Part shown: one piece after another, positions 4,317 to 37,738 of the stretch | Layout of the letters: every line of letters starts with the position of its first letter | How positions within the stretch are numbered: position 1 is the first letter of the stretch | Source of the DNA: a virus | DNA length: 64,000 nucleotides | Virus record (IMG/VR): IMGVR_UViG_3300044591_002613 | Direction: 5' to 3' (one strand) | Position numbers and translations under genes: made by a program | The notes under the pieces: generated by a model | Databases searched by the model: none | Seen by the model: only the letters and a program-made list of their open reading frames with translations | Told to the model about the DNA's origin: nothing

Positions 4317-5822
4317 TCAGACGCTTCCATAGGTCTCGTCATTGAGCTCATGGTAGACGTTATCAAGGAGGCCGTGATGACGTACATGCTCAAGAACAAC
4401 TGCGAGGTAGCTTACATAAAGAGTTTCTTCAACAAGACCACGAAGGCCGAGTTTCATCTTTGAAAGCATTTCGCCAAGAACCGCAAGCTTAGCACGGAAC
4501 TGAGCTTTTGGTAGGAACACAACGCTGTCAAGGCCAGGAAGGATAGCTTGTGCGTCAACTGCTGTGGTTGAACCAGCGCGAGCAGCAATTACGCGACCGC
4601 AAGCTTTCCATGTACCAGAAGCGCCGCCAACCGCAGTGCGGAATAGAGCAAACTCTTCAGCGCCAGGAACAGCACCGATTGTAAGTTGAACTTTGTTACC
4701 ATCAGCAGCGATAGTTACAGAAACTTCAGCTGAAGGCATTGAAATGCCGTGGATGTTAACAGCTTGGACAACATACTTAACAACATCGCCAGCCTTGAAT
4801 GATGTATTACCAGCAACTTGAGCAGTTCCTGAAATAACAGGAGTTGCGATTGTACCGCTGGAGCTCATTACAGGCTCTGGGTAAGCGCGAGTATATTTGA
4901 ATACAGAAGGAATGAAGTCAACTGTACCAACAACTGTTTGGAGTGGGAAACCAGACTTAGCTTCAGCTTCAACGTTTGCACCACGGATAGCGTAAGCTGC
5001 GCCAAGATCACCGCGCTCGAATGGGAAGAATGTAGCACGGAAGTGAACAAGTTGGTCAACCGTACAGTGAGCTTCAACGATACGACCACGGTTCTCGCGA
5101 ACTGCAGAAACAAGCTTGTCAACTTGGCCCCTGGTAAGGACTTGACCCTTAGCATCAGCAAAAGTTACACGGTTGTTACCGTAGCCAACGAAGTCACCGA
5201 TGATACCGCGAGCAGACTTGTTGCCTTCACGGATTTGAGCTTGGATACCGCGTGGCATACGCATAGGAGCGTTCGGGTTAGCAGCAAGAGTGCTGTCGAT
5301 CTCACCGTTTTGGTCGAGATACATGTCGCCACCGATGTACATTGCACGCTCAAGACCTTCAGCCATTGACATAGCTGCGTTCTTGTCATTTTCTGCTTCG
5401 AGGTCGAGCATATAGCCGCCAGCAGAGTTAACAGTTTGTGCAAGGTGGGTAATTGTTTTACGAATACCTTGAACGCGAAGGACTTCAGCAACGCGCATGT
5501 ATTGTGAAACATCTTCTTGTGGAAGGAATGTTTCGACGCCCCATGTGTCGATACCGCTACGGACTGCTGTCTTAACTACATAGCTATATGTAGTTTGAGT
5601 AGCTTTGAGAGTTTGAACGTTTTTGGTCAAGAGGAAGTCTTCGTCCTCAAGAGTCAATGAACGCACGGTAGGCTCAAGGCTATCAATAGCAATTGCAGAA
5701 GTACCAGTTCTTCCTGCGTTGTTGAGACCAGGGAAGCCAGCAGCGAAAGACTTGTTAAGGCTCTCTAGCTTCTGAGCGATCATTTGAAGCTCTTGCTGAT
5801 TAAGTGGACTAAAACCTGACAT
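4317..5822 (-). CDS. Major capsid protein, Twort/SPO1 (Herelleviridae)-like, with an Ig/FN3-like insertion
   Basis: N-terminus LNKSFAAG...AIAIDSLEPTVRSLT resembles the K/A511 capsid pattern (KSF.TG...AL..E.L...I..LT). It also has LERAMYIGG and a YVVQAVNIHGISMPS FN3-like insert, with strong codon bias. ATG 5822 lies 6 nt after SD GAGGTG. Confidence 0.85.
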   Translation of the reverse strand: MSGFSPLNQQELQMIAQKLESLNKSFAAGFPGLNNAGRTGTSAIAIDSLEPTVRSLTLEDEDFLLTKNVQTLKATQTTYSYVVKTAVRSGIDTWGVETFLPQEDVSQYMRVAEVLRVQGIRKTITHLAQTVNSAGGYMLDLEAENDKNAAMSMAEGLERAMYIGGDMYLDQNGEIDSTLAANPNAPMRMPRGIQAQIREGNKSARGIIGDFVGYGNNRVTFADAKGQVLTRGQVDKLVSAVRENRGRIVEAHCTVDQLVHFRATFFPFERGDLGAAYAIRGANVEAEAKSGFPLQTVVGTVDFIPSVFKYTRAYPEPVMSSSGTIATPVISGTAQVAGNTSFKAGDVVKYVVQAVNIHGISMPSAEVSVTIAADGNKVQLTIGAVPGAEEFALFRTAVGGASGTWKACGRVIAARAGSTTAVDAQAILPGLDSVVFLPKAQFRAKLAVLGEMLSKMKLGLRGLVEETLYVSYLAVVLEHVRHHGLLDNVYHELNDETYGSV

Positions 5823-5862
5823 ACATAACACCTCTTAAAGAGTTAAACAAATTTCTTATACA

Positions 5863-5910
5863 ATTCTACACCAAAAAGCTTAAACTCATGGAGTTAAAGT
5901 AATTATACAC
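5863..5910 (-). promoter_or_regulatory. Candidate late promoter boxes GTGTATAAT (5902-5910) and GTGTAGAAT (5863-5871) upstream of the capsid gene
   Basis: The same 9-mer occurs upstream of two other putative virion genes (14663-14671 minus; 35944-35952 plus). Confidence 0.5.
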
Positions 5911-6092
5911 ACAGATTCATAAACAAAAAAAGTGACAATTTAATTAAATGTCCAGTTTTTTTAAATAAAATGACATTCGATGTTAAATATCTAATATAAT
6001 TAGATTTTATCCATACAAATATTATAAAATGAGATTGTTTAGCATTAGCAATAAATAATTCATGAGTAATGTTTATTATTGATAAATAAGCT

Positions 6093-6386
6093 TTAAATGT
6101 GATTCATGAGCTTTGATGAAAGCTTTTTTTGACCGCATTTTTCTAAAAAATGAATGGTATCTTCTAAAGATAAGAAGTCATCTGAAAGCGCCACCAAGTT
6201 AACTAGCATAGAAGGATAGGTTGGTAACCAGAGATCAAATTGCCCTATTGTACTCGACAGCTCAGACAAATACAAAATTTCTAAGGTGTCTGTGTTAAGT
6301 CTATGCACCATCCAAAACTCTACTTCATAGGCATCCATGGTTTTATTAAAATTTAATTTTTGATAAACTTTATATAAATAATTCAT
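6093..6386 (-). CDS. Hypothetical protein
   Basis: 97-aa ORF coupled (ATGA) to the upstream ORF in the primase operon. Confidence 0.5.
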   Translation of the reverse strand: MNYLYKVYQKLNFNKTMDAYEVEFWMVHRLNTDTLEILYLSELSSTIGQFDLWLPTYPSMLVNLVALSDDFLSLEDTIHFLEKCGQKKLSSKLMNHI

Positions 6387-6622
6387 GGTATTGAATTTGG
6401 AAGCCCGTTGTTGTAAAGAAAGTTTTTTATTTCATTTTTACCAAGCCATTCGCTGATGGCTACAGTTTTACTAGACAGTTCATCCCATGGTGACACGACA
6501 AACCATTCTGATTCGCCAATTTTTCGCATTTCTAGTGCAGAATTAGCACTTAGGTCCATTCTTGCGATGTAGTGTTCGGTATCATTCTTGCGCACTTGGT
6601 AAATAAAACGTTGTTGGTTCAT
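6383..6622 (-). CDS. Hypothetical protein
   Basis: 79-aa ORF with ATGA overlap with the primase stop. Confidence 0.55.
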   Translation of the reverse strand: MNQQRFIYQVRKNDTEHYIARMDLSANSALEMRKIGESEWFVVSPWDELSSKTVAISEWLGKNEIKNFLYNNGLPNSIP

Positions 6623-7719
6623 TTTTTATCCTGCTCTGTTAAATCTTTTAACATTTTGTTCATTTTTTTTGCTTTTTGTTGTTCAAAAATATCATCTATT
6701 CTTAATACGTTTGGAGTCCACCAATGTTTTGATTCTACCAAACCTGTAATTTTTAGCAATTTATCTTGTGTTTCAAGATCTAATCCTGAATATTTGACTA
6801 GCATAGAATTGAAATCCTCCGTTTCAATCCTAGGAACTACGCGTTCATACTTCACACCATAAAAATCTAAGAACCTAGCTAGCTTGCAAGAGCCATTTTC
6901 ACCAGCTTCATCGGGGTCTAGACCAATATATATCTTTGGATTATCTGGATTTTGTTCCATAGCCATCATTGCAATCTGTCTAGCTTGAGATGCGGATATT
7001 TGTGCGCCCATTGTTGCTACGCCGTAATAACCAAACCAGACTGCCGAAATAGCGTCAAATGGACCCTCGACGACACAAATTGGATCACTAACCTCCCCGA
7101 ATTTGACAAATGCATGGGCTTTTGGCAAATTTGCGTCAGTATGCACTTTTATTCTTGCATCTGGTGAAATAAAACGTTTTTGAAAACCAACTAAAGTGTC
7201 AAAACAATAAATAGGGAATGCGACTGCTCTAGCAAACGGATCAATAAATACTTCATGCGTTAAATCGCCAACAACACCGCGTTTCCTAGCATAAATAGAC
7301 GCAGGGTTGCTTGGCCAATCATACACTTTATGAAATGTTTCCGGGACCGAACAGTGTTGTAGTTTTAAAGTTTCGTGCGGTTGATTAATCGGTGTGTGCG
7401 GCATAGGCTGATCTAGGTCAAACATACCCGCATTTGGTTTCGATATTTGTCGTCCAAATAGCTCAGAACGAATTTTTTTATAACTATCGGCACCACAATC
7501 AACAAGATATTTAAGCAGGGAGAACTTTGCACCACAAACCCAGCATTGACCAAACACTTTAGTTTCGTCGTCTTCAGGTTTTAGCAGCCAGACAGAATAC
7601 TTACTTTTGCCGCAGCTAGGACAAAACTTCAAAATCAAAGATCTGCGATTGGCCTTATAATCAATCGCATATTTATCTAGGATGTTTATAATTGCCGTTT
7701 CAGTATGATGTGAGCTCAA
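6619..7719 (-). CDS. DNA primase (Zn finger + TOPRIM)
   Basis: CPSC...CWVC zinc finger. TOPRIM motifs VVEGPFDA and GLDPDEAG, then EDFN. Confidence 0.85.
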   Translation of the reverse strand: MSSHHTETAIINILDKYAIDYKANRRSLILKFCPSCGKSKYSVWLLKPEDDETKVFGQCWVCGAKFSLLKYLVDCGADSYKKIRSELFGRQISKPNAGMFDLDQPMPHTPINQPHETLKLQHCSVPETFHKVYDWPSNPASIYARKRGVVGDLTHEVFIDPFARAVAFPIYCFDTLVGFQKRFISPDARIKVHTDANLPKAHAFVKFGEVSDPICVVEGPFDAISAVWFGYYGVATMGAQISASQARQIAMMAMEQNPDNPKIYIGLDPDEAGENGSCKLARFLDFYGVKYERVVPRIETEDFNSMLVKYSGLDLETQDKLLKITGLVESKHWWTPNVLRIDDIFEQQKAKKMNKMLKDLTEQDKK

Positions 7720-30760: not shown

Positions 30761-31666
30761 ATGTCTACAGTGCATATTAAAGGCTTTGGACTGATTGGCT
30801 CACTTCTTGCCTGGGAACTTACTAGTAGAAAGATTATGTTTTCGTGGGAAGACAACGATACACCCGGTGCATGGAAAGCCAGCACTGGGTGTATTTATCC
30901 ATCGGGAGAAGAACTAGACGCCGTTAATTATGATCTTTGGCTGCAATCATTCGGCCAAGCAGATCGCAGGCCAATTATTTTGTTTTCGGAAGCCGTTCCT
31001 TATGGGTATACACAAAAAAGCATTCCGCATCATAATAACTCCAAAGAGCTAAAATATGTAGAAACTGTTGGAAATATTAAGATTTTAAATAAACAGTCAA
31101 TGCATGTAAATGTGCAAGCGTTTGTGCAGTTTACCCAAGAATTTTTCTTTTCTGCGCGTATAGATAAAACTCCAACAAATCGTCTCGTTATTCACGCTAA
31201 TGGGTTTCATAAATATAAACCCACTGATTATCGTTGGGGTTGGTCGGTAGAGTGTAAGCCAAGCGGAGAAGTGTTTAATCGTTATCCCAGGTTTTGCCTA
31301 AACGCTAAAGAGGGGCGATTTATAAACGCGTATTTATATCCAAAACCTACTACCGACACTTACTATCTTGGAACTCATTTTATTTATCAAAAAGAGCAAA
31401 AAGATTTAGAAATTAAGGACAAGATTGAAAAAATTGTTCAGCATATTTCTAAAGTGACCGATGGCCAAGTGAGCATTGAAATAACTGGCGAGCCTAAAAC
31501 TGGTTGGAGGCCGGCTTATATGGAAGAATACTCGCACGCATTTATCCAAGAAGGCAGTTCTATGTATGTAACGCCAAAGTCTGCAAACGGTTTACGCCAC
31601 GCCCCAACGTATATTAAAGAACTTGCCGATGGCATTCAAGAGTATTTGTATGCAACATCTATTTAA
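30761..31666 (+). CDS. FAD-dependent oxidoreductase (DAO/glycine oxidase-like), candidate DNA-hypermodification flavoenzyme
   Basis: Rossmann motif VHIKGFGLIGSLLAWEL, AWKASTG, GWRP and ANGLRHAP. Overlaps the amino acid:DNA transferase gene. Confidence 0.75.
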   Translation: MSTVHIKGFGLIGSLLAWELTSRKIMFSWEDNDTPGAWKASTGCIYPSGEELDAVNYDLWLQSFGQADRRPIILFSEAVPYGYTQKSIPHHNNSKELKYVETVGNIKILNKQSMHVNVQAFVQFTQEFFFSARIDKTPTNRLVIHANGFHKYKPTDYRWGWSVECKPSGEVFNRYPRFCLNAKEGRFINAYLYPKPTTDTYYLGTHFIYQKEQKDLEIKDKIEKIVQHISKVTDGQVSIEITGEPKTGWRPAYMEEYSHAFIQEGSSMYVTPKSANGLRHAPTYIKELADGIQEYLYATSI

Positions 31667-32513
31667 TTTTGCAGATTTTGAGAAAGCCAGCTTAGCCTTA
31701 ATCCATACACAAGACGTTGATCCTGTTTATCCTTTTCTTAAATCGGTCATAAAACATGAAAAGTTTAATCCCGAAACGGCAATTTTCATGTACGTTTACT
31801 ATTACTCTATCGAGAGTATGGTTTTGTTCATGCGTGGAGTTGCTGAAGGCAAAACTTCCACGCAAATGTTTGAAAAAATTAGTAAGTTTGGAATGGAACG
31901 CGGTCGAACTCCGCAAGTCCGCCGTATAGAAAATTTTGAAAAAGCTTTTGATCGATGGTTAACAGTTGAATCAAAATTCAAAACAGAATCATTAGATTTT
32001 AATAGCGGTCGAGAGTTATTCAAAACCATTCCATATTTTGGCGATTGGGCTTGCTATAAAACATGCGAACTCATGGATCAAACACTTGGTTACAGTAACC
32101 TCCGCATTGACGGATTGGGAATCGAAGCCTCTGACCCTAATAAAAACACCGGACCTGTATTTGGTCTACGTTACCTATACGGTATTAACCAAAAATTTAC
32201 TAAAGACATAATTCCAGAATGGGAAGCTTTAGGCTGGAATTTATCAAAAGTCTGGAATGCCCCAATTGGTCAAGTCGAGAGCTGTTTGTGTAAAGTACCT
32301 AAAATATTGCATAAGGGGAGTTATGTAGTTGGACATGACATTAATGAATTTCTAGTTCTTAAAAAACCAGAATTATATCCAGATAACATATTTTGGAATT
32401 TAATCAATGAATGCGGATTTGATCATAAATTTTTGCAACATCATTTTTCAGTAAAAGAAAAAACTGCGTACATTAAAACCAAACAATTGCTTTTTGTGGA
32501 GGAAGCCATATGA
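31650..32513 (+). CDS. Amino acid:DNA transferase (aGPT-Pplase2/AADT family, HhH glycosylase-like fold)
   Basis: DVDPVY, YVYYY, GMERGR, HhH-like IPYFGDWACYKTCEL, GPVFGL, VESCLCK and YVVGHDI. Confidence 0.75.
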   Translation: MQHLFNFADFEKASLALIHTQDVDPVYPFLKSVIKHEKFNPETAIFMYVYYYSIESMVLFMRGVAEGKTSTQMFEKISKFGMERGRTPQVRRIENFEKAFDRWLTVESKFKTESLDFNSGRELFKTIPYFGDWACYKTCELMDQTLGYSNLRIDGLGIEASDPNKNTGPVFGLRYLYGINQKFTKDIIPEWEALGWNLSKVWNAPIGQVESCLCKVPKILHKGSYVVGHDINEFLVLKKPELYPDNIFWNLINECGFDHKFLQHHFSVKEKTAYIKTKQLLFVEEAI

Positions 32514-32839
32514 AAAAGAAAAGTAAGTCAAATAAGTATAGCCATTTGAGTGATATTGAAAAAGCTTTCGTAAAGAACTATTCTTACGATGAATTGCAAA
32601 TGCTAAAGACCTACAGTGTCGATAAGCTAAAGCAGATTATCGCAGAACAGAATGCGCATGTTCTAAAGGCAAAGAAGGAAATGGAGGCTAATTCAGAATT
32701 CAAATCTGCACAAGAAATTTTGCAAACATTTCGTAGTGCCTTCAATGAAACAAGAAACTTTGCAGACTCTAAACGAGTATTGGCTCTTTCCTTGCTGCAG
32801 AAGGAGGGGATTGTAGACATGGGTGCTGAATTAGAGTAA
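32510..32839 (+). CDS. Hypothetical coiled-coil protein
   Basis: 109-aa ORF with SD GGAGG and ATGA overlap. Confidence 0.6.
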   Translation: MKKKSKSNKYSHLSDIEKAFVKNYSYDELQMLKTYSVDKLKQIIAEQNAHVLKAKKEMEANSEFKSAQEILQTFRSAFNETRNFADSKRVLALSLLQKEGIVDMGAELE

Positions 32840-32849
32840 GGGCAAAACA

Positions 32850-33224
32850 ATGATTGTTAATGAAACTAAAATTACATTAAAAATGTTTTGCAAAACTCTT
32901 AATATCCCAGTACCTTCTACTGAAGATCATCAACTTTTTATGAAAAATTATGTAGAACAACATAATTTGGACTGGAATAATTTAACAGAAAAAATTAAAA
33001 AGAATAAAGAAAAAACATCTAGTCGACGAAAACAAAGACATAAAGAGTTAATGGAAGAACTGCGCAAGGCAGACGAAAAATTCTTTTTAGACCACGGAGC
33101 TGCTAAAGCCAAAGATCGTAATTGTCTTAAATGCAATACTGTATTTTTTTCACCAAACGGTAATAGGATTTGTACTAAATGCCATAAAACAAACCAGGAG
33201 TATATTGAGGGCTTCCATGACTAA
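32850..33224 (+). CDS. Zinc-finger protein
   Basis: RNCLKCNTVFFSPNGNRICTKC. Confidence 0.65.
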   Translation: MIVNETKITLKMFCKTLNIPVPSTEDHQLFMKNYVEQHNLDWNNLTEKIKKNKEKTSSRRKQRHKELMEELRKADEKFFLDHGAAKAKDRNCLKCNTVFFSPNGNRICTKCHKTNQEYIEGFHD

Positions 33225-33855
33225 AGTAGCAATTTTTCTAATGGGCGCAGGCGCCACTGGCAAAACGACAACTAGAAATACTTTTTGCCAGGGTGATGGC
33301 AAAGAAATTTCTAAAATGGGTAAATTTATTAAAAAACGTATGCCTAATAGAGGGGCTACAATTGAGCAGAAATATAGTATTGTTCAATACGATAATTGTG
33401 TTTTGGTTGGTAATAAAAATTCTGGCACGGATTCCATAACTACACCATCGCTGGTTAGAACGGGCTTCTTTGATGCTCTAGAGCTATCAGATACAGTTAT
33501 TATCGATGGCGTTATGTCGACCTCTCGTTGGGTAGAAATGGTTAACGAATATCGGCATAAAGAAGATATTAAAGTCGTTGTTGTACATTACGACTTTGCC
33601 GTAGAAAAGATCAGAGAGCGTCTTTCATTGCGCAGAAAAAATGCGGGCATCGTAGAAGAACGTCTTCCTGACTTAACATTTAATAATGTTCAGGTCTTTA
33701 CGGATAGAGCAAAGATGTGCGTAGGATATTTCTTGGATTTATGCCGCGCCCCTGTTACTCTAGTAAAAGTAGATTTTGAAGATTCACCCGAACAAGTAGT
33801 GCAAAAGCTACAGCAAGGAATTAAAGAATGTTTGTCTACGGCACCTTCCCTGTAG
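33217..33855 (+). CDS. P-loop nucleotide kinase, candidate 5-hydroxymethyluracil-DNA kinase
   Basis: Walker A GAGATGKTT, SGTDSI, Walker B IIDG and lid RERLSLRR. Adjacent to AADT. Confidence 0.65.
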   Translation: MTKVAIFLMGAGATGKTTTRNTFCQGDGKEISKMGKFIKKRMPNRGATIEQKYSIVQYDNCVLVGNKNSGTDSITTPSLVRTGFFDALELSDTVIIDGVMSTSRWVEMVNEYRHKEDIKVVVVHYDFAVEKIRERLSLRRKNAGIVEERLPDLTFNNVQVFTDRAKMCVGYFLDLCRAPVTLVKVDFEDSPEQVVQKLQQGIKECLSTAPSL

Positions 33856-34364
33856 TTAGCACAGAGATCCTATTTGACGTTCTTAAAAAACGCAGTAGCG
33901 ATCCTCTAGTTCAGGTGGTTGCAATTGCCGTAGACACATCAACTAATTCCGTTATTGCCTATGGCGTTAACAAAATAATTTCAGCATTTGAAAAAAATGC
34001 AAGGGCTCTTTCTGAGCTTGCGGTTGATAAAAATCCTGCCAAAAAATTCTTAGTTCGCCATGCAGAAATTGATCTTTTAGAAAAAATGACGCAAACAATG
34101 AATATTGATAAATATCAATTTATTGTAAGTATACAGCCCTGCATGGCTTGTATGACTAAACTGCTTGATAAAAATATCAATAGTATTGGTTATATTAAAG
34201 AAAATCGCCACCAAGATGAACAAGAAATTATGAAGCCTTTTTTATCCAATATCCAATATGGTAAAATAGAGCATAAAATGGTTTGCGTACCACCTTGGAT
34301 TGTAACAGAGGCCGAACTTGAACAAACTGTTAGAAATAATCGAACTATGCAAGAAAATGGCTAA
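33828..34364 (+). CDS. dCMP/cytidine deaminase family protein
   Basis: RSSDP..QV, GVN, HAE and QPCMAC zinc motifs. Confidence 0.8.
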   Translation: MFVYGTFPVVSTEILFDVLKKRSSDPLVQVVAIAVDTSTNSVIAYGVNKIISAFEKNARALSELAVDKNPAKKFLVRHAEIDLLEKMTQTMNIDKYQFIVSIQPCMACMTKLLDKNINSIGYIKENRHQDEQEIMKPFLSNIQYGKIEHKMVCVPPWIVTEAELEQTVRNNRTMQENG

Positions 34365-34551
34365 ATCCACGCCTGCGGAAACTGTACAAGACAGAATGTA
34401 TAAAATTCTTGATGGTTCTGTATCTTCTATTTCCAAAAAAACTACAGTTAAAACTCCAGAAATAAAAATGCCGGAAGCCCCTAAACTTCCGGGTACATCT
34501 ATTCCCACGGGTTCTCGTCAAAAAAACAAGATTGGTAATTCCGAAGTTTAA
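34318..34551 (+). CDS. Small basic protein, possible internal head protein
   Basis: TTG start after GAGG. LCKKMAKS resembles the N-terminus of the 36026 protein. Confidence 0.4.
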   Translation: MNKLLEIIELCKKMAKSTPAETVQDRMYKILDGSVSSISKKTTVKTPEIKMPEAPKLPGTSIPTGSRQKNKIGNSEV

Positions 34552-35000
34552 ATTAATTTTGCCTGATCATTTAATATTCTTTTAATTGAATCTTCAATAA
34601 TTTTAGTCACTTCCATAACATCTTCATGATTTTTAATAAAAGCCGGATCTTCAATTCGTTTTAAATCCAGGTCTGGCAGGACCGTGTAGAGCGGCTTGCA
34701 TTTATGTATAAATTGAACATGGTTTTTATACATATAGTTGAAATGTGCGGGGGCCATATATAAAACAATATCCGCCCACTCCATTAATTCTGCCGTAAGA
34801 TGCTGAGAACGTATTGTTGGCTCCGAATAACCTAATTCAATTAAACAACGACGCATTTTTTTAGCCATTAGGTAGTTTTTACCGGCACCTTCTGCAGTTC
34901 CAGCAGATTTAACTTCCATATGCGGCGCCAGGCATTTAAGGATATGCTCCGCAGTTGGGCTGCGGAATTTATTACCGGTGCAAATGAATAAAACTTTCAT
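34548..35000 (-). CDS. Low-molecular-weight phosphatase (LMW-PTP/ArsC fold)
   Basis: VLFICTGNKFRSPTAE (CX5R), SAGT, WADIVLYM and IEDP. Confidence 0.85.
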   Translation of the reverse strand: MKVLFICTGNKFRSPTAEHILKCLAPHMEVKSAGTAEGAGKNYLMAKKMRRCLIELGYSEPTIRSQHLTAELMEWADIVLYMAPAHFNYMYKNHVQFIHKCKPLYTVLPDLDLKRIEDPAFIKNHEDVMEVTKIIEDSIKRILNDQAKLI

Positions 35001-35007
35001 TTAATCC

Positions 35008-35931
35008 TCAATAAAGAGTTTGTTCGTCAACTAAGCCTTGCTCAATTAAACGTTTGTAGTTTTCTCGTACCTCAGAGCGTTTGTTATGATAAACATTAGT
35101 TTGCCTAAAAATTTTATCTAGTTCGTGGTCATACGGGTGAAAATTTTGAAACACTAAGTCTGGATTGTTTTCCAAAATCTGCTTGGGTGTATAGCCAGTA
35201 ACAAAGACTGCTTCCATAAGCAACTTAGGCCATTTATACGCCGACAGCATTTTATTTAGATCCGGCGACATAGTAAAATGCCTAAATTCAATGGTTTCGG
35301 TGTCTTCAAACACTTGCTTAAGATTTACACCAGCCCTAACCACAACATGCCACATAGGCTGCCCAAACCGATTTTTAGGGGCATGAGCCTCATAAAACTC
35401 GCGTGGTGACTTAGCATTCATCATAAGTTTATAAACTTTTTCTGATACGCGGTATCTATGGGACTTATTGCGACGACGCCATCTTGAAACAGCACCGTTA
35501 TAAAAGTCCGGATTAGAAAATTTAAGCTGTCGTTCTGGGAACGGATTTGGGTCTATGAGTTCATAGATTTCTTCGTCATATTTACGAAGATATGCAGTAA
35601 TTTTCTTTAGGGCCTCTAGATCATCCTTCAGTCCGGGAATACGAATATGAACATGCAGATTAGTAGTAAAGTTAAAGTGTTTTTTAGGCAAAAGATCATA
35701 AATTTCTTTAGTAGCGCGAAGCAACTCTTCCGGAGAGTTTTCTGGCTTCATTTGAATCTCGCCACCATATCGATTAAAAACTTTTTTAGGATCATTTGCA
35801 GTTCCATTGGAATTACAGATAGATCCATCTTTATCACACCATCTATTTCCCGGCGGAAGAATAATTTTTGTATCAACATCGCCAAGTTCTAATTCGGCGC
35901 CAAACGTCATCTTGCTTAAATCAATTGCCAT
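35008..35931 (-). CDS. Putative amidoligase (glutamine-synthetase-like COOH-NH2 ligase)
   Basis: TFGAELELGD, DGS, GGEI, NLHVHI, VNL and TIEFRHF. Confidence 0.8.
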   Translation of the reverse strand: MAIDLSKMTFGAELELGDVDTKIILPPGNRWCDKDGSICNSNGTANDPKKVFNRYGGEIQMKPENSPEELLRATKEIYDLLPKKHFNFTTNLHVHIRIPGLKDDLEALKKITAYLRKYDEEIYELIDPNPFPERQLKFSNPDFYNGAVSRWRRRNKSHRYRVSEKVYKLMMNAKSPREFYEAHAPKNRFGQPMWHVVVRAGVNLKQVFEDTETIEFRHFTMSPDLNKMLSAYKWPKLLMEAVFVTGYTPKQILENNPDLVFQNFHPYDHELDKIFRQTNVYHNKRSEVRENYKRLIEQGLVDEQTLY

Positions 35932-35943
35932 AGGCGACTCCAA

Positions 35944-35952
35944 GTGTATAAT
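35944..35952 (+). promoter_or_regulatory. Candidate late promoter box GTGTATAAT
   Basis: Upstream of the 36026 gene and lysis cassette. Identical to the boxes before the capsid and 14620 genes. Confidence 0.5.
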
Positions 35953-36025
35953 TTATACTAGCGATTTGCTAATATAAGACAATGGCATTAATTTCATTAA
36001 AAGTCAAGGTTTTTTGGAGAAAAGA

Positions 36026-37738
36026 ATGAGCATTCATCATCTTAAAAAAATGCACAAAATGTGTAAGGCAATGCCCGTTGATCAGGCCGTAGAAGAAATC
36101 AAAGGACCGGCTAAAGTCAATGAAGTAATGCCTAAAGTTGCTCCAGAAGATCGAGCCGATGTTTTTAACAAGTTGCGAATGGAAAAAGCAACAGAGCTAC
36201 AAAAACAGGCTATGCCAGCTGGCGGTGCAAGACCTGGGACAGAAATGAGCCCGGCTATGGTTCAAACTTCTTCTCAAACTGCAATGGCAAAAGCGGACGA
36301 AGAGAACGATGACGCTGCTCTTACAGATGCTATGAAAGATTTAAAACGTCAGAAAAGATTTAGAGATGTAGCTAAGTTAGCACAGGACATGGGCGAAGCT
36401 GCAGAGCGTAGTGGAGATGCAAAAACAGCGCAGGCTCACTATAAAACTGCTCTAAGATATCACAATAAACATGCCGAACAAGACTATACAGGAAAACCTG
36501 TTGATGTTAGTGTTCCTAAAACCGAAGCAGTAACCGTTCCAAGAAAAGTTGGTCGTGATACTGAAGTACGTCGTCAGTTTGAGCAAGATCTTGCGCCTTT
36601 GCAAGAAGAACTTAGGTCTTTAACTAAACCAAAAACCGAAGAAGAAATTAAAAACGCACAAGATCCAAAGATTGCTCCTCAAAGATTAAAAAGAATTAAA
36701 GAATTAAACGAGCAAATTTTAGACAGAAAACAAAAATTTGGCGCTGCAGCACTTGGCCTTGGCGATCCTAAATCACCTAACTATGATCCTGATTTTGAAG
36801 ATCCCGATACAAAAAGTGCTCTTTATGATCCTAATGTTTCTATGGCTGCAGAACAATTCCGCGCACAACAAAAACCCGTTTCTGAAGAAATGCCAAAAGA
36901 ATTCTTGGAACAAGAAGAAACTAGACAGGTTCCTGGGTTTGAAACAAAACGTCAATACCAAGGAAGAGCCGATCAAAGTTTATCAAGCAGAAGTTACTCA
37001 CCAGATTCTCGTGGCTCGTTGACACAATTAACAGGGCCTGGAGTAAGAGGTGTGCCTGGTCGTAGTTCTAAGTTCGGTCCTAGCGCACAGGCTCAGGCTG
37101 AACACATGGATTGGTTTTTAGCTCGTCAAGGGGCTAAGGGTGGTTCTGGACTAAGGCCACAAGGAGCGGCTGAACGAGAAGTAGGCGATGCAACCGAAGG
37201 GGCGGCGCAAGAAGCACAAAGCGTTGTCTCGCAACCAAATTATTCTCCCGGTTCTGGTGAATTCAAAAGAAAAGTCAAGCCAAAATCTGGTGGCGGAGAT
37301 GTAGTAGCAGGCGGTGGCGCGGCTGAATATGCAGCTAGAATTGCTGAACTAAAGGCTAGACAAGAGGCAGCCCAAAAACAAAAAGTTTCCGCTGAAGCTC
37401 AAAAACCACAAGAAATTCCTTCTGCGAATGAAGGATTTGTAGCAATGCCTAAAGCAGAAATTGAAAGAAGAATGAAAGAAAAACAAGGCGCAAGCGACGA
37501 ACAGGCTGCTAAGTCTATGTATAAATCTGCAGAGCAGGCTAAAAATCCAGCGTTTATGAAAAGACCAAAAGAAGGGACGGTTGCTGGCGAAATTCCAGAA
37601 TCCGACATTGTTGGTGACTATTCTAAACGAATGGGAGAAGAAAAATCTGTGAATGACAAGCCAGCAAAAAAACAAGGGTTTGGCAGCGCGGAAACTCTTA
37701 AAAAGGCCCATTCTTTATTAAAGAAGAAATATAAATAA
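36026..37738 (+). CDS. Large hydrophilic, probably disordered protein; candidate internal head/ejection protein
   Basis: Rich in K/E/Q/A/G/P with no hydrophobic core. MCKA, MEKA, MAKA, AKSMYKS, EEKS and LKKA motifs lie near both termini. Confidence 0.5.
   Translation: MSIHHLKKMHKMCKAMPVDQAVEEIKGPAKVNEVMPKVAPEDRADVFNKLRMEKATELQKQAMPAGGARPGTEMSPAMVQTSSQTAMAKADEENDDAALTDAMKDLKRQKRFRDVAKLAQDMGEAAERSGDAKTAQAHYKTALRYHNKHAEQDYTGKPVDVSVPKTEAVTVPRKVGRDTEVRRQFEQDLAPLQEELRSLTKPKTEEEIKNAQDPKIAPQRLKRIKELNEQILDRKQKFGAAALGLGDPKSPNYDPDFEDPDTKSALYDPNVSMAAEQFRAQQKPVSEEMPKEFLEQEETRQVPGFETKRQYQGRADQSLSSRSYSPDSRGSLTQLTGPGVRGVPGRSSKFGPSAQAQAEHMDWFLARQGAKGGSGLRPQGAAEREVGDATEGAAQEAQSVVSQPNYSPGSGEFKRKVKPKSGGGDVVAGGGAAEYAARIAELKARQEAAQKQKVSAEAQKPQEIPSANEGFVAMPKAEIERRMKEKQGASDEQAAKSMYKSAEQAKNPAFMKRPKEGTVAGEIPESDIVGDYSKRMGEEKSVNDKPAKKQGFGSAETLKKAHSLLKKKYK

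Follow-up and report, generated by a model that had tools for sequence, protein, structure and literature searches.

We analyzed a 64,000-nucleotide stretch of viral DNA (IMG/VR virus record IMGVR_UViG_3300044591_002613; “the window”) and describe here a gene cluster that begins at its position 30,761 (Table 1). We read this region as a post-replicative pyrimidine hypermodification cluster that resembles the one of phage PaMx11 but would end in an N-acyl-5-aminomethyl-deoxyuridine (5-aminomethyl-dU) other than the acetyl form, a reading to which we give somewhat better than even odds (a probability of roughly 0.55). That a hypermodification cluster is present is well supported, and the DNA base that it encodes is very probably one not yet described; how its last steps proceed chemically is what we infer.

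In PaMx11, 5-acetylaminomethyl-dU is made by a glycine:DNA transferase (gp46), an N-alpha-GlyT oxidase (gp47) that uses flavin adenine dinucleotide (FAD), an acetyltransferase (gp48) and a 5-hydroxymethyl-dU (5-hmdU) DNA kinase (gp49) (PMC8989533; structures in PMC11472151). Building on what the genes encode, how the proteins fold, which catalytic residues are kept and which genes occur together, we propose chemical steps for the window, in an order that is itself part of the proposal: (i) a P-loop kinase would phosphorylate 5-hmdU in newly made phage DNA, probably with a HMUDK helical-domain partner encoded elsewhere in the genome; (ii) an amino acid:DNA transferase (AADT) would swap the phosphate for glycine or a similar alpha-amino acid by means of Cys223 and a metal site; (iii) a flavoenzyme of the D-amino acid oxidase (DAO) fold would trim the adduct oxidatively to 5-aminomethyl-dU; (iv) a ligase of the glutamine synthetase (GS) fold, in place of the acetyl-CoA-dependent acetyltransferase of PaMx11, would use ATP to join a carboxylic acid to the exposed amine, giving the N-acyl end product; and (v) a low-molecular-weight (LMW) phosphatase would take phosphate off the donor or adduct, or off unreacted 5-phosphomethyl-dU.

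The window belongs to a large phage genome and codes for a DnaE-type polymerase, a class I ribonucleotide reductase, RecA, an SbcCD-like nuclease and DnaB, and likewise for GroEL, an endolysin and tail genes. A blastn search of cultured phages with the whole region gave no match. Four related IMG/VR contigs were available, one of which (IMGVR_UViG_3300020204_000007, “G001”; 169 kb, CheckV 100% complete) shows synteny over the full window, in reverse orientation, at ~70–79% nucleotide identity. In the genome-wide statements below, G001 stands in for those parts of the genome that lie beyond the window.

Flavoenzyme, amino acid:DNA transferase and kinase

The initial annotation had described six genes in this region. 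All six are present where it placed them, and each assignment is backed by homology, profile or fold, although the phosphatase and the deaminase alone pass a Pfam cut-off directly and the other four needed deeper tests. Pairwise BLASTP comparisons of the flavoprotein, the AADT and the kinase with their counterparts in the sewage phage Simon (PQ683277) were not significant, and we therefore turned to family profiles and folds for these three proteins.

Judged by its sequence family, the protein encoded at 31650–32513 is a divergent AADT. Translation probably begins with the ATG at 31650, since the alignment to the closest representative sets in at residue 10. When compared directly with the Pfam ADDT model (PF18724) it reached an E-value of only 0.012, and phmmer with the single sequence against the PDB was uninformative; tblastn matched annotated actinophage aGPT-Pplase2 proteins at ~3e-7. 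An exhaustive phmmer search collected 134 representatives, and 53 of the 60 that were taken match PF18724. The resulting family profile found the solved AADTs 25qc_A (2.7e-26) and 8z2m, the PaMx11 gp46 glycinyltransferase (3.7e-19). The metal and catalytic residues described for the 15599 Pplase2 are E222, T223 and C226, and glycine is bound in the YuA enzyme by D24, E96, K159, K248, Y257 and D262 (PMC13458397). The window AADT keeps the catalytic cysteine (C223) and the metal site (E219 and S220), with a conservative change at position 220, where 54 of 60 homologs have threonine. Its residues D31 (D31/D33), E92, K146, K224, Y234 and D239 align with the six glycine-binding residues of YuA.

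This pocket varies with the flavoenzyme. The glycine-type signature E/K/K/Y/D, which corresponds to E96/K159/K248/Y257/D262 of YuA, occurs in 18 of 19 loci that contain a DAO gene, the window family included, versus ~5 of 50 loci without one. Most DAO-less loci instead carry the pocket D/F/S/H-or-R/Y, which lacks both carboxylate-binding lysines. The glycine-type pocket and its co-variation with DAO fit a PaMx11-like route to 5-aminomethyl-dU. The initial annotation had suggested that kinase, AADT and flavoenzyme together give 5-aminomethyl-U; the three enzymes were verified and the pocket data agree with such a product, its chemistry being proposed as above.

The flavoprotein has an N-terminal GxGxxG motif (GFGLIG, residues 8–13). 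It gave no Pfam match even at an E-value of 10, including to the DAO model (PF01266); its family profile found no chain in the PDB, and a single-sequence phmmer search there was uninformative. Its AlphaFold2 (AF2) model (pLDDT 88.8) placed D-amino acid oxidase (DAAO) first in a Foldseek search of the PDB (E 3e-12). With VIA, residues 1–301 aligned with DAAO at Z 21.4 (281 aligned, root-mean-square deviation 3.1), MnmC at Z 19.5 and glycine oxidase at Z 18.9; PaMx11 gp47 (8z2o) was absent among the 50 VIA matches listed. It is thus the predicted fold that places the protein in the DAO family, and within it we predict an N-alpha-glycinyl-thymidine oxidase equivalent to PaMx11 gp47/NGTO. A useful comparison is the C-terminal FAD domain of E. 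coli MnmC, which converts cmnm5U to nm5U in tRNA: it has the same fold, likewise with 281 residues aligned, and the same proposed chemistry, the oxidative removal of a carboxymethyl group from a glycine on a C5-methylene. Unlike MnmC, the window flavoenzyme would act on DNA, and no S-adenosylmethionine (SAM)-dependent methyltransferase domain follows it.

The third protein carries a Walker A motif and gave no direct Pfam match. Hhalign of its family against the HMUDK_HMUD1 alignment yielded a probability of 95.4% (E 1.7e-8) over 180 of 212 columns, a region that takes in the Walker A and the G..D substrate motif, and its ESM Atlas look-alikes fall in viral HMUDK_HMUD1 and Ploopntkinase3 clusters (0.93–0.95). 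We assign it as a predicted remote relative of the 5-hmdU DNA kinases (HMUDK_HMUD1, PF18748). No HMUDK_hel protein (PF18723) is encoded in the window; G001 has one (79776–80699, 87 bits), which maps ~8 kb beyond the window start (L025:2057–2980, minus strand).

The ligase–phosphatase pair

The amidoligase scored 1.3e-3 and 19.1 bits against Amidoligase_2 (PF12224), below the cut-off of 22, and a precomputed match to this model exists in 2 of its 39 homologs. Its AF2 model (pLDDT 94.7) aligned by VIA with YbdK-type enzymes at Z 10.1 and 9.9 (220 aligned, root-mean-square deviation 4.9), gamma-glutamylcysteine ligase (GCL) at 9.5, GS at ~9 and PafA at 9.0, and all 50 VIA matches listed belong to the GS/GCL/YbdK superfamily. 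E17, E19, E62, H97, H99, R203, E219 and R221 are invariant across 26 sequences. We place these residues in the active site as putative ligands of metal and ATP; their type and spacing fit the ATP/Mg acyl-phosphate mechanism of the superfamily (YbdK/GCS2, GCL, GS, PafA). By fold and invariant residues the protein is a predicted GS-fold ATP-dependent carboxylate-amine ligase. It differs from characterized members in being much smaller (311 aa), in sharing ~10–13% identity with them, and in having relatives that sit in phage DNA-modification clusters, with an LMW phosphatase partner in 34 of 36 lineages.

That partner is recognized directly: the phosphatase matches LMWPc (PF01451) at 9e-15 and 55.6 bits (cut-off 23.2) and conserves both the P-loop CTGNKFRS (C-X5-R-(S/T)) and the DP general acid (IEDPAF). 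We conjecture that its near-obligate pairing with the ligase reflects a phosphorylated donor or intermediate, or the clean-up of 5-phosphomethyl-dU.

The lineages come from a profile scan of IMG/VR with the amidoligase, which found 78 loci; custom hidden Markov models were applied to all their open reading frames (ORFs), and grouping at 70% identity reduced the loci to 36 independent lineages. Within 10 kb of the amidoligase, HMUDK was found in 25 of the 36 lineages, DAO in 14, LMWPc in 34 and AADT also in 34; the two lineages lacking an AADT are L103 and L040, the latter cut by the contig end on the side where the AADT is expected. LMWPc lies directly downstream of the amidoligase in most loci. 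The co-occurrence of amidoligase and AADT across phage genomes, which the initial annotation had named as a check of its proposal, is therefore near-universal. Eight contexts taken from other databases (Simon and seven others) were inspected by hand, and all of them are likewise inside AADT/HMUDK clusters. In Simon, a single same-strand block holds AADT, DAO, amidoligase (35% identity), LMWPc, the HMUDK P-loop gene, HMUDK_hel, Nmad5 and a ThyA homolog. In the homolog P0065, an amidoligase (about residues 1–300) and HMUDK_HMUD1 (321–475, 36.5 bits) are naturally fused.

Two architectures recur. In type A the order is AADT-DAO-amidoligase-LMWPc-HMUDK-HMUDK_hel-ThyA, which puts the ligase–phosphatase pair in the position of the PaMx11 acetyltransferase. 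Type B, the commoner one (loci including L046–L085, L097, L107 and L111), lacks DAO and reads amidoligase-LMWPc-AADT, in some cases with a weak kinase match next in order; its pocket probably implies another AADT donor and another base again. In L042–L045, two tandem amidoligase matches (a duplicated or split gene) precede an oppositely oriented LMWPc and then the AADT.

In the window the pair stands on the opposite strand in an operon of its own, as mere neighbors of the cluster might if they served another end, such as the modification of host metabolites or proteins. As the sole counter-example, a distant homolog (28% identity) is moreover encoded by Vibrio phage 2.275.O (L001, MG592671; 7866–8978), whose genome has neither AADT nor HMUDK; there QueF-like, QueC-like, Ntn-hydrolase and GTP cyclohydrolase I genes follow directly after it, and the fold may serve 7-deazaguanine DNA modification in that phage. 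However, with an AADT within 10 kb in nearly every lineage, one homolog fused to HMUDK, and many clusters in which the pair lies between DAO and kinase on the strand that they share, the idea of unrelated neighbors is close to refuted by the co-occurrence data. Because of the AADT and LMWPc co-occurrence, the kinase fusion and the embedding in such clusters, we assign the amidoligase and phosphatase to the predicted hypermodification pathway.

What the ligase acts on is less certain. The simplest unifying view is that it acylates a free amine, which in type A would arise by glycine transfer and oxidative trimming and in type B would presumably be delivered directly by another AADT donor. The initial annotation had proposed acylation of the amine of 5-aminomethyl-U, for example with glutamate. 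Acylation is favored by the acetyltransferase slot and by the lack of a GNAT in G001; the tie to 5-aminomethyl-dU is looser than proposed, since in many DAO-less clusters this intermediate is not strictly needed; and glutamylation is one guess among others. The same annotation had seen no acetyltransferase, radical SAM or pyridoxal phosphate (PLP) enzyme in the window. A GNAT (Acetyltransf_1) is absent from G001, from the three partial relatives and from the window ORFs scanned, and radical SAM and GATase_6 proteins are absent from G001. The PLP part does not extend to the genome: an alliinase/TAA1-like enzyme (PF04864, 109 bits) is conserved in the family (G001, 96335–97201, and the relatives G002 and G004) at a site away from the cluster. 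It may have a part in supplying or tailoring the adduct, and no other candidate finishing enzyme is evident in G001.

At odds well short of even, the ligase could instead work on a carboxylate, either activating by phosphorylation the free carboxyl group of a DNA-borne amino acid such as N-alpha-glycinyl-T and joining it to ammonia or a small amine, or pre-assembling the amine donor of the AADT; the flavoenzyme would then have another role or stand on a parallel branch. The conserved core is the trio amidoligase-LMWPc-AADT and 22 of the 36 lineages are DAO-free, so that the ligase must have a substrate even where there is no oxidase. Enzymes of the GS fold turn carboxylates into acyl phosphates to activate them, in the case of PafA on a macromolecule. 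In L010 the second gene upstream of the amidoligase is a weak GATase_6-like ORF, and amidotransferases alongside amidoligases were noted by Lee et al. (PMC8989533). However, where a cluster contains DAO, cleavage of the MnmC1/NGTO type would remove any group attached to the glycine carboxylate, and the amidoligase takes precisely the place of the acetyltransferase. The DAO-less AADTs, lacking both lysines, may give adducts that carry a free amine, and G001 has no GATase_6. Acylation of an amine is the reading that we prefer.

Supply of the hydroxymethyl pyrimidine

The initial annotation had held that the absence of a hydroxymethyl-dUMP (hmdUMP) synthase from the genome would count against it. 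The window phage family has one thymidylate-synthase homolog (PF00303; 235 aa) only, unlinked to the cluster, which reads RSWDIFLGVPYD; the Asp in it aligns with N177 of E. coli ThyA and D179 of T4 gp42, and its best PDB relatives are the T4 dCMP hydroxymethylase (7e-17) and the CMP hydroxymethylase MilA. No ThyX was found in the relative genomes searched, including G001, and G001 has no Asn-type ThyA. A passage of PMC8670742 cites the N177/D179 residue as an established determinant of the choice between dUMP and dCMP. By contrast with the window family, the ThyA homologs inside other amidoligase clusters have Asn in 23 of 23 cases (4+19). The homolog found is therefore of the dCMP type, and on this point the evidence goes against the initial annotation unless a deaminase or an oxygenase supplies 5-hydroxymethyluracil (hmU).

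A candidate deaminase is in the operon itself. It matches dCMP_cyt_deam_1 (PF00383) at 5e-7 and 30 bits (cut-off 25), and its HAE and PCMAC zinc motifs are invariant in four orthologs. A tblastn search of cultured phages gave no match, scanning IMG/VR with a profile brought up the four related contigs and no others, and a deaminase inside an amidoligase cluster occurs in the window family only. The deaminase and kinase genes have an overlap of 28 nt, suggestive of translational coupling. Elsewhere G001 encodes a dUTPase and a further dCMP deaminase of the canonical kind; the presence of the latter suggests that the two deaminases have distinct substrates. Because the sole synthase homolog is of the Asp type and the deaminase is embedded in the cluster, we favor a supply route in which the synthase would convert dCMP to 5hm-dCMP and the operon deaminase, a candidate 5hm-dCMP deaminase, would convert this to 5hm-dUMP. 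Phage T4 is similar in that the family's synthase aligns with gp42, Asp179 included, and a zinc deaminase (cd, the dCMP deaminase, in T4) is encoded; it differs in that T4 5-hydroxymethylcytosine (5hmC) stays in the DNA and is glucosylated, whereas the downstream enzymes of the window are of the hmU type and its deaminase is divergent and coupled to the kinase.

It is quite unlikely, in our view, that the cluster hypermodifies cytosine, with the synthase giving 5hm-dCMP and the kinase, AADT and oxidase acting on 5hmC in DNA. The Asp at the specificity position, the closeness to T4 gp42 and MilA, and a complete relative genome with neither Asn-type ThyA nor ThyX speak for such a scheme, and the family's kinase, AADT and DAO are unusually divergent from T-type enzymes. 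However, the AADT retains the full catalytic and glycine-pocket set of the thymidine-acting enzymes, G001 has a bona fide HMUDK_hel, and outside this family the amidoligase/LMWPc module occurs with hydroxymethylases of the Asn type (dUMP-type) only; the operon-embedded deaminase would also be left unexplained. As a long shot, the kinase, AADT, oxidase, amidoligase and phosphatase would build the first amino-acid-derived hypermodified cytosine or, in a milder form of the idea, the deaminase would open a new pre-replicative route from 5hm-dCMP to 5hm-dUMP.

Also unlikely is a post-replicative origin of hmU, in which a 2-oxoglutarate (2OG)-Fe(II) dioxygenase oxidizes T in DNA and the Asp-type synthase and deaminase belong to ordinary or separate nucleotide metabolism. 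Phage T-dioxygenases tied to kinase/AADT clusters are documented (PMC13229309; PMC8989533), and in G001 a 2OG-FeII_Oxy_3 gene (79205–79858; L025:1486–2139, minus strand; 64.5 bits) overlaps the HMUDK_hel gene by 83 nt. However, its match to Tet_JBP (19.7 bits) is far under the cut-off of 34.9, its Atlas look-alikes all belong to the generic phage 2OG-FeII_Oxy_3 family, and the gene lies ~8 kb outside the window beside putative terminase genes. Synthesis of 5hm-dUMP through the operon deaminase is the route we prefer.

Several points weigh against the proposed N-acyl-5-aminomethyl-dU pathway as a whole. (i) Its chemistry is built by inference, and the evidence singles out no acyl donor. (ii) With most amidoligase lineages lacking DAO within 10 kb and their AADT pockets differing, the ligase is independent of 5-aminomethyl-dU, and it could act on the adduct carboxylate or make the AADT donor. 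(iii) Simple acylation leaves the phosphatase without an obvious role. (iv) The Asp rule comes from mutagenesis of ThyA and T4 gp42 rather than of the window family's enzyme. (v) The oxygenase could supply hmU by oxidizing T, which would leave the deaminase another job. (vi) Kinase, AADT and DAO have diverged too far to match Pfam directly, and their base specificity may be altered towards 5hmC.

Two further genes of G001 concern DNA modification. A Mom-family protein (PF25680, 112.6 bits) is encoded outside the window at 115265–115831, and the lineage may hypermodify adenine besides a pyrimidine. Near the contig end, 167790–167978 matches glycosyltransferase family 9 (35 bits), possibly of relevance if the DNA keeps 5hmC.

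Gene arrangement, known systems and significance

The plus-strand operon contains two small ORFs in addition to the six genes described by the initial annotation. For the first of them, family searches gave no significant match; other clusters have small ORFs between the kinase and its helical-domain gene, of which one, in L023, weakly matches a zinc finger. The AADT gene overlaps the flavoprotein gene. The amidoligase gene, followed by the phosphatase gene, forms a minus-strand pair that converges on the plus-strand operon, with a strong hairpin between the two. The eight genes are intact and collinear in all four related contigs at 62–99% amino-acid identity, and we therefore consider them real and under selection.

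Table 1. Genes and other features of the cluster, with positions in the window
Feature	Position	Strand	Remarks
FAD oxidase, DAAO/glycine oxidase/MnmC (GR2) fold	30761–31666	+	301 aa; GxGxxG; predicted model
Divergent AADT/aGPT-Pplase2, glycine-type donor pocket	31623–32513	+	family profile; retained residues
Small conserved ORF, 109 aa	32510–32839	+	in operon; 90–96% identity in four related contigs
Small conserved ORF, 124 aa	32850–33224	+	C-terminal CxxC...CxxC zinc ribbon; 68–83% identity in related contigs
Divergent P-loop kinase, HMUDK_HMUD1 family	33205/33217–33855	+	Walker A GAGATGKT; hhalign
Divergent zinc cytidine/dCMP-type deaminase	33828–34364	+	Pfam; HAE + PCxxC
Terminator-like GC hairpin with T-run	34471–34492	-	9-bp stem, 5 GC pairs
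LMW (Cys-X5-Arg) phosphatase	34548–35000	-	Pfam LMWPc; P-loop
Predicted carboxylate-amine ligase, GS/gamma-glutamylcysteine ligase/YbdK fold (Amidoligase_2-like)	35008–35943	-	fold; invariant residues

A near-consensus sigma-70-like promoter lies at 35925–35952. Diverging from the amidoligase promoter region, 36014–37738 (plus strand) encodes a 574-aa low-complexity ORF rich in Lys, Glu, Ala and Gln, whose length and sequence vary greatly among relatives. Two related phages that bear the ligase–phosphatase module (L022, and L010 at 1–2480 and 4898–6853) carry an intein-interrupted DNA polymerase A and an intein-containing helicase; in L022 (1–1447) the intein-interrupted polymerase is fused to a uracil-DNA glycosylase.

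To our knowledge, each tailoring enzyme added to the kinase/AADT scaffold so far has led to a new natural DNA base. Hypermodified bases confer resistance to restriction and CRISPR and are used in sequencing and labelling chemistry.

Compared with PaMx11, the window has the kinase, an AADT with a glycine pocket and a DAO-fold flavoenzyme, and the order AADT-FAD-X-kinase is identical in related metagenomic clusters. The differences are that X is a GS-fold ATP-dependent ligase with an LMW phosphatase rather than an acetyltransferase, that the three shared enzymes are highly divergent, and that the hydroxymethylase of the family is of the Asp type and unlinked to the cluster, with a deaminase embedded in the operon. 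The association of amidoligases with such clusters had already been published, uncharacterized: Lee et al. (2021, PMC8989533) reported viral metagenomic contigs that carry 5-HMUDK and aGPT-Pplase2 together with amidoligase and glutamine-amidotransferase Pfam matches, with no function given. Their text mentions no partner phosphatase, nor does it report that the acetyltransferase slot is equivalent, that the donor pocket correlates with DAO, or that a variant with Asp-type synthase and deaminase exists. A literature search did not find these features or the kinase fusion, nor a product identified for any amidoligase-bearing cluster.

The amidoligase and LMW phosphatase pair is the most widespread uncharacterized tailoring module seen here, with 36 lineages in two architectures. 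The pair is common in uncultured phages and probably makes a DNA base not yet described; if the proposed pathway is true, its ligase would be the first enzyme shown to form amides on DNA bases in an ATP-dependent manner. The relation between AADT pocket and DAO offers a means to predict donors from sequence, and the combination of an Asp-type synthase with an operon deaminase makes a testable prediction on how these phages would obtain their hmU.

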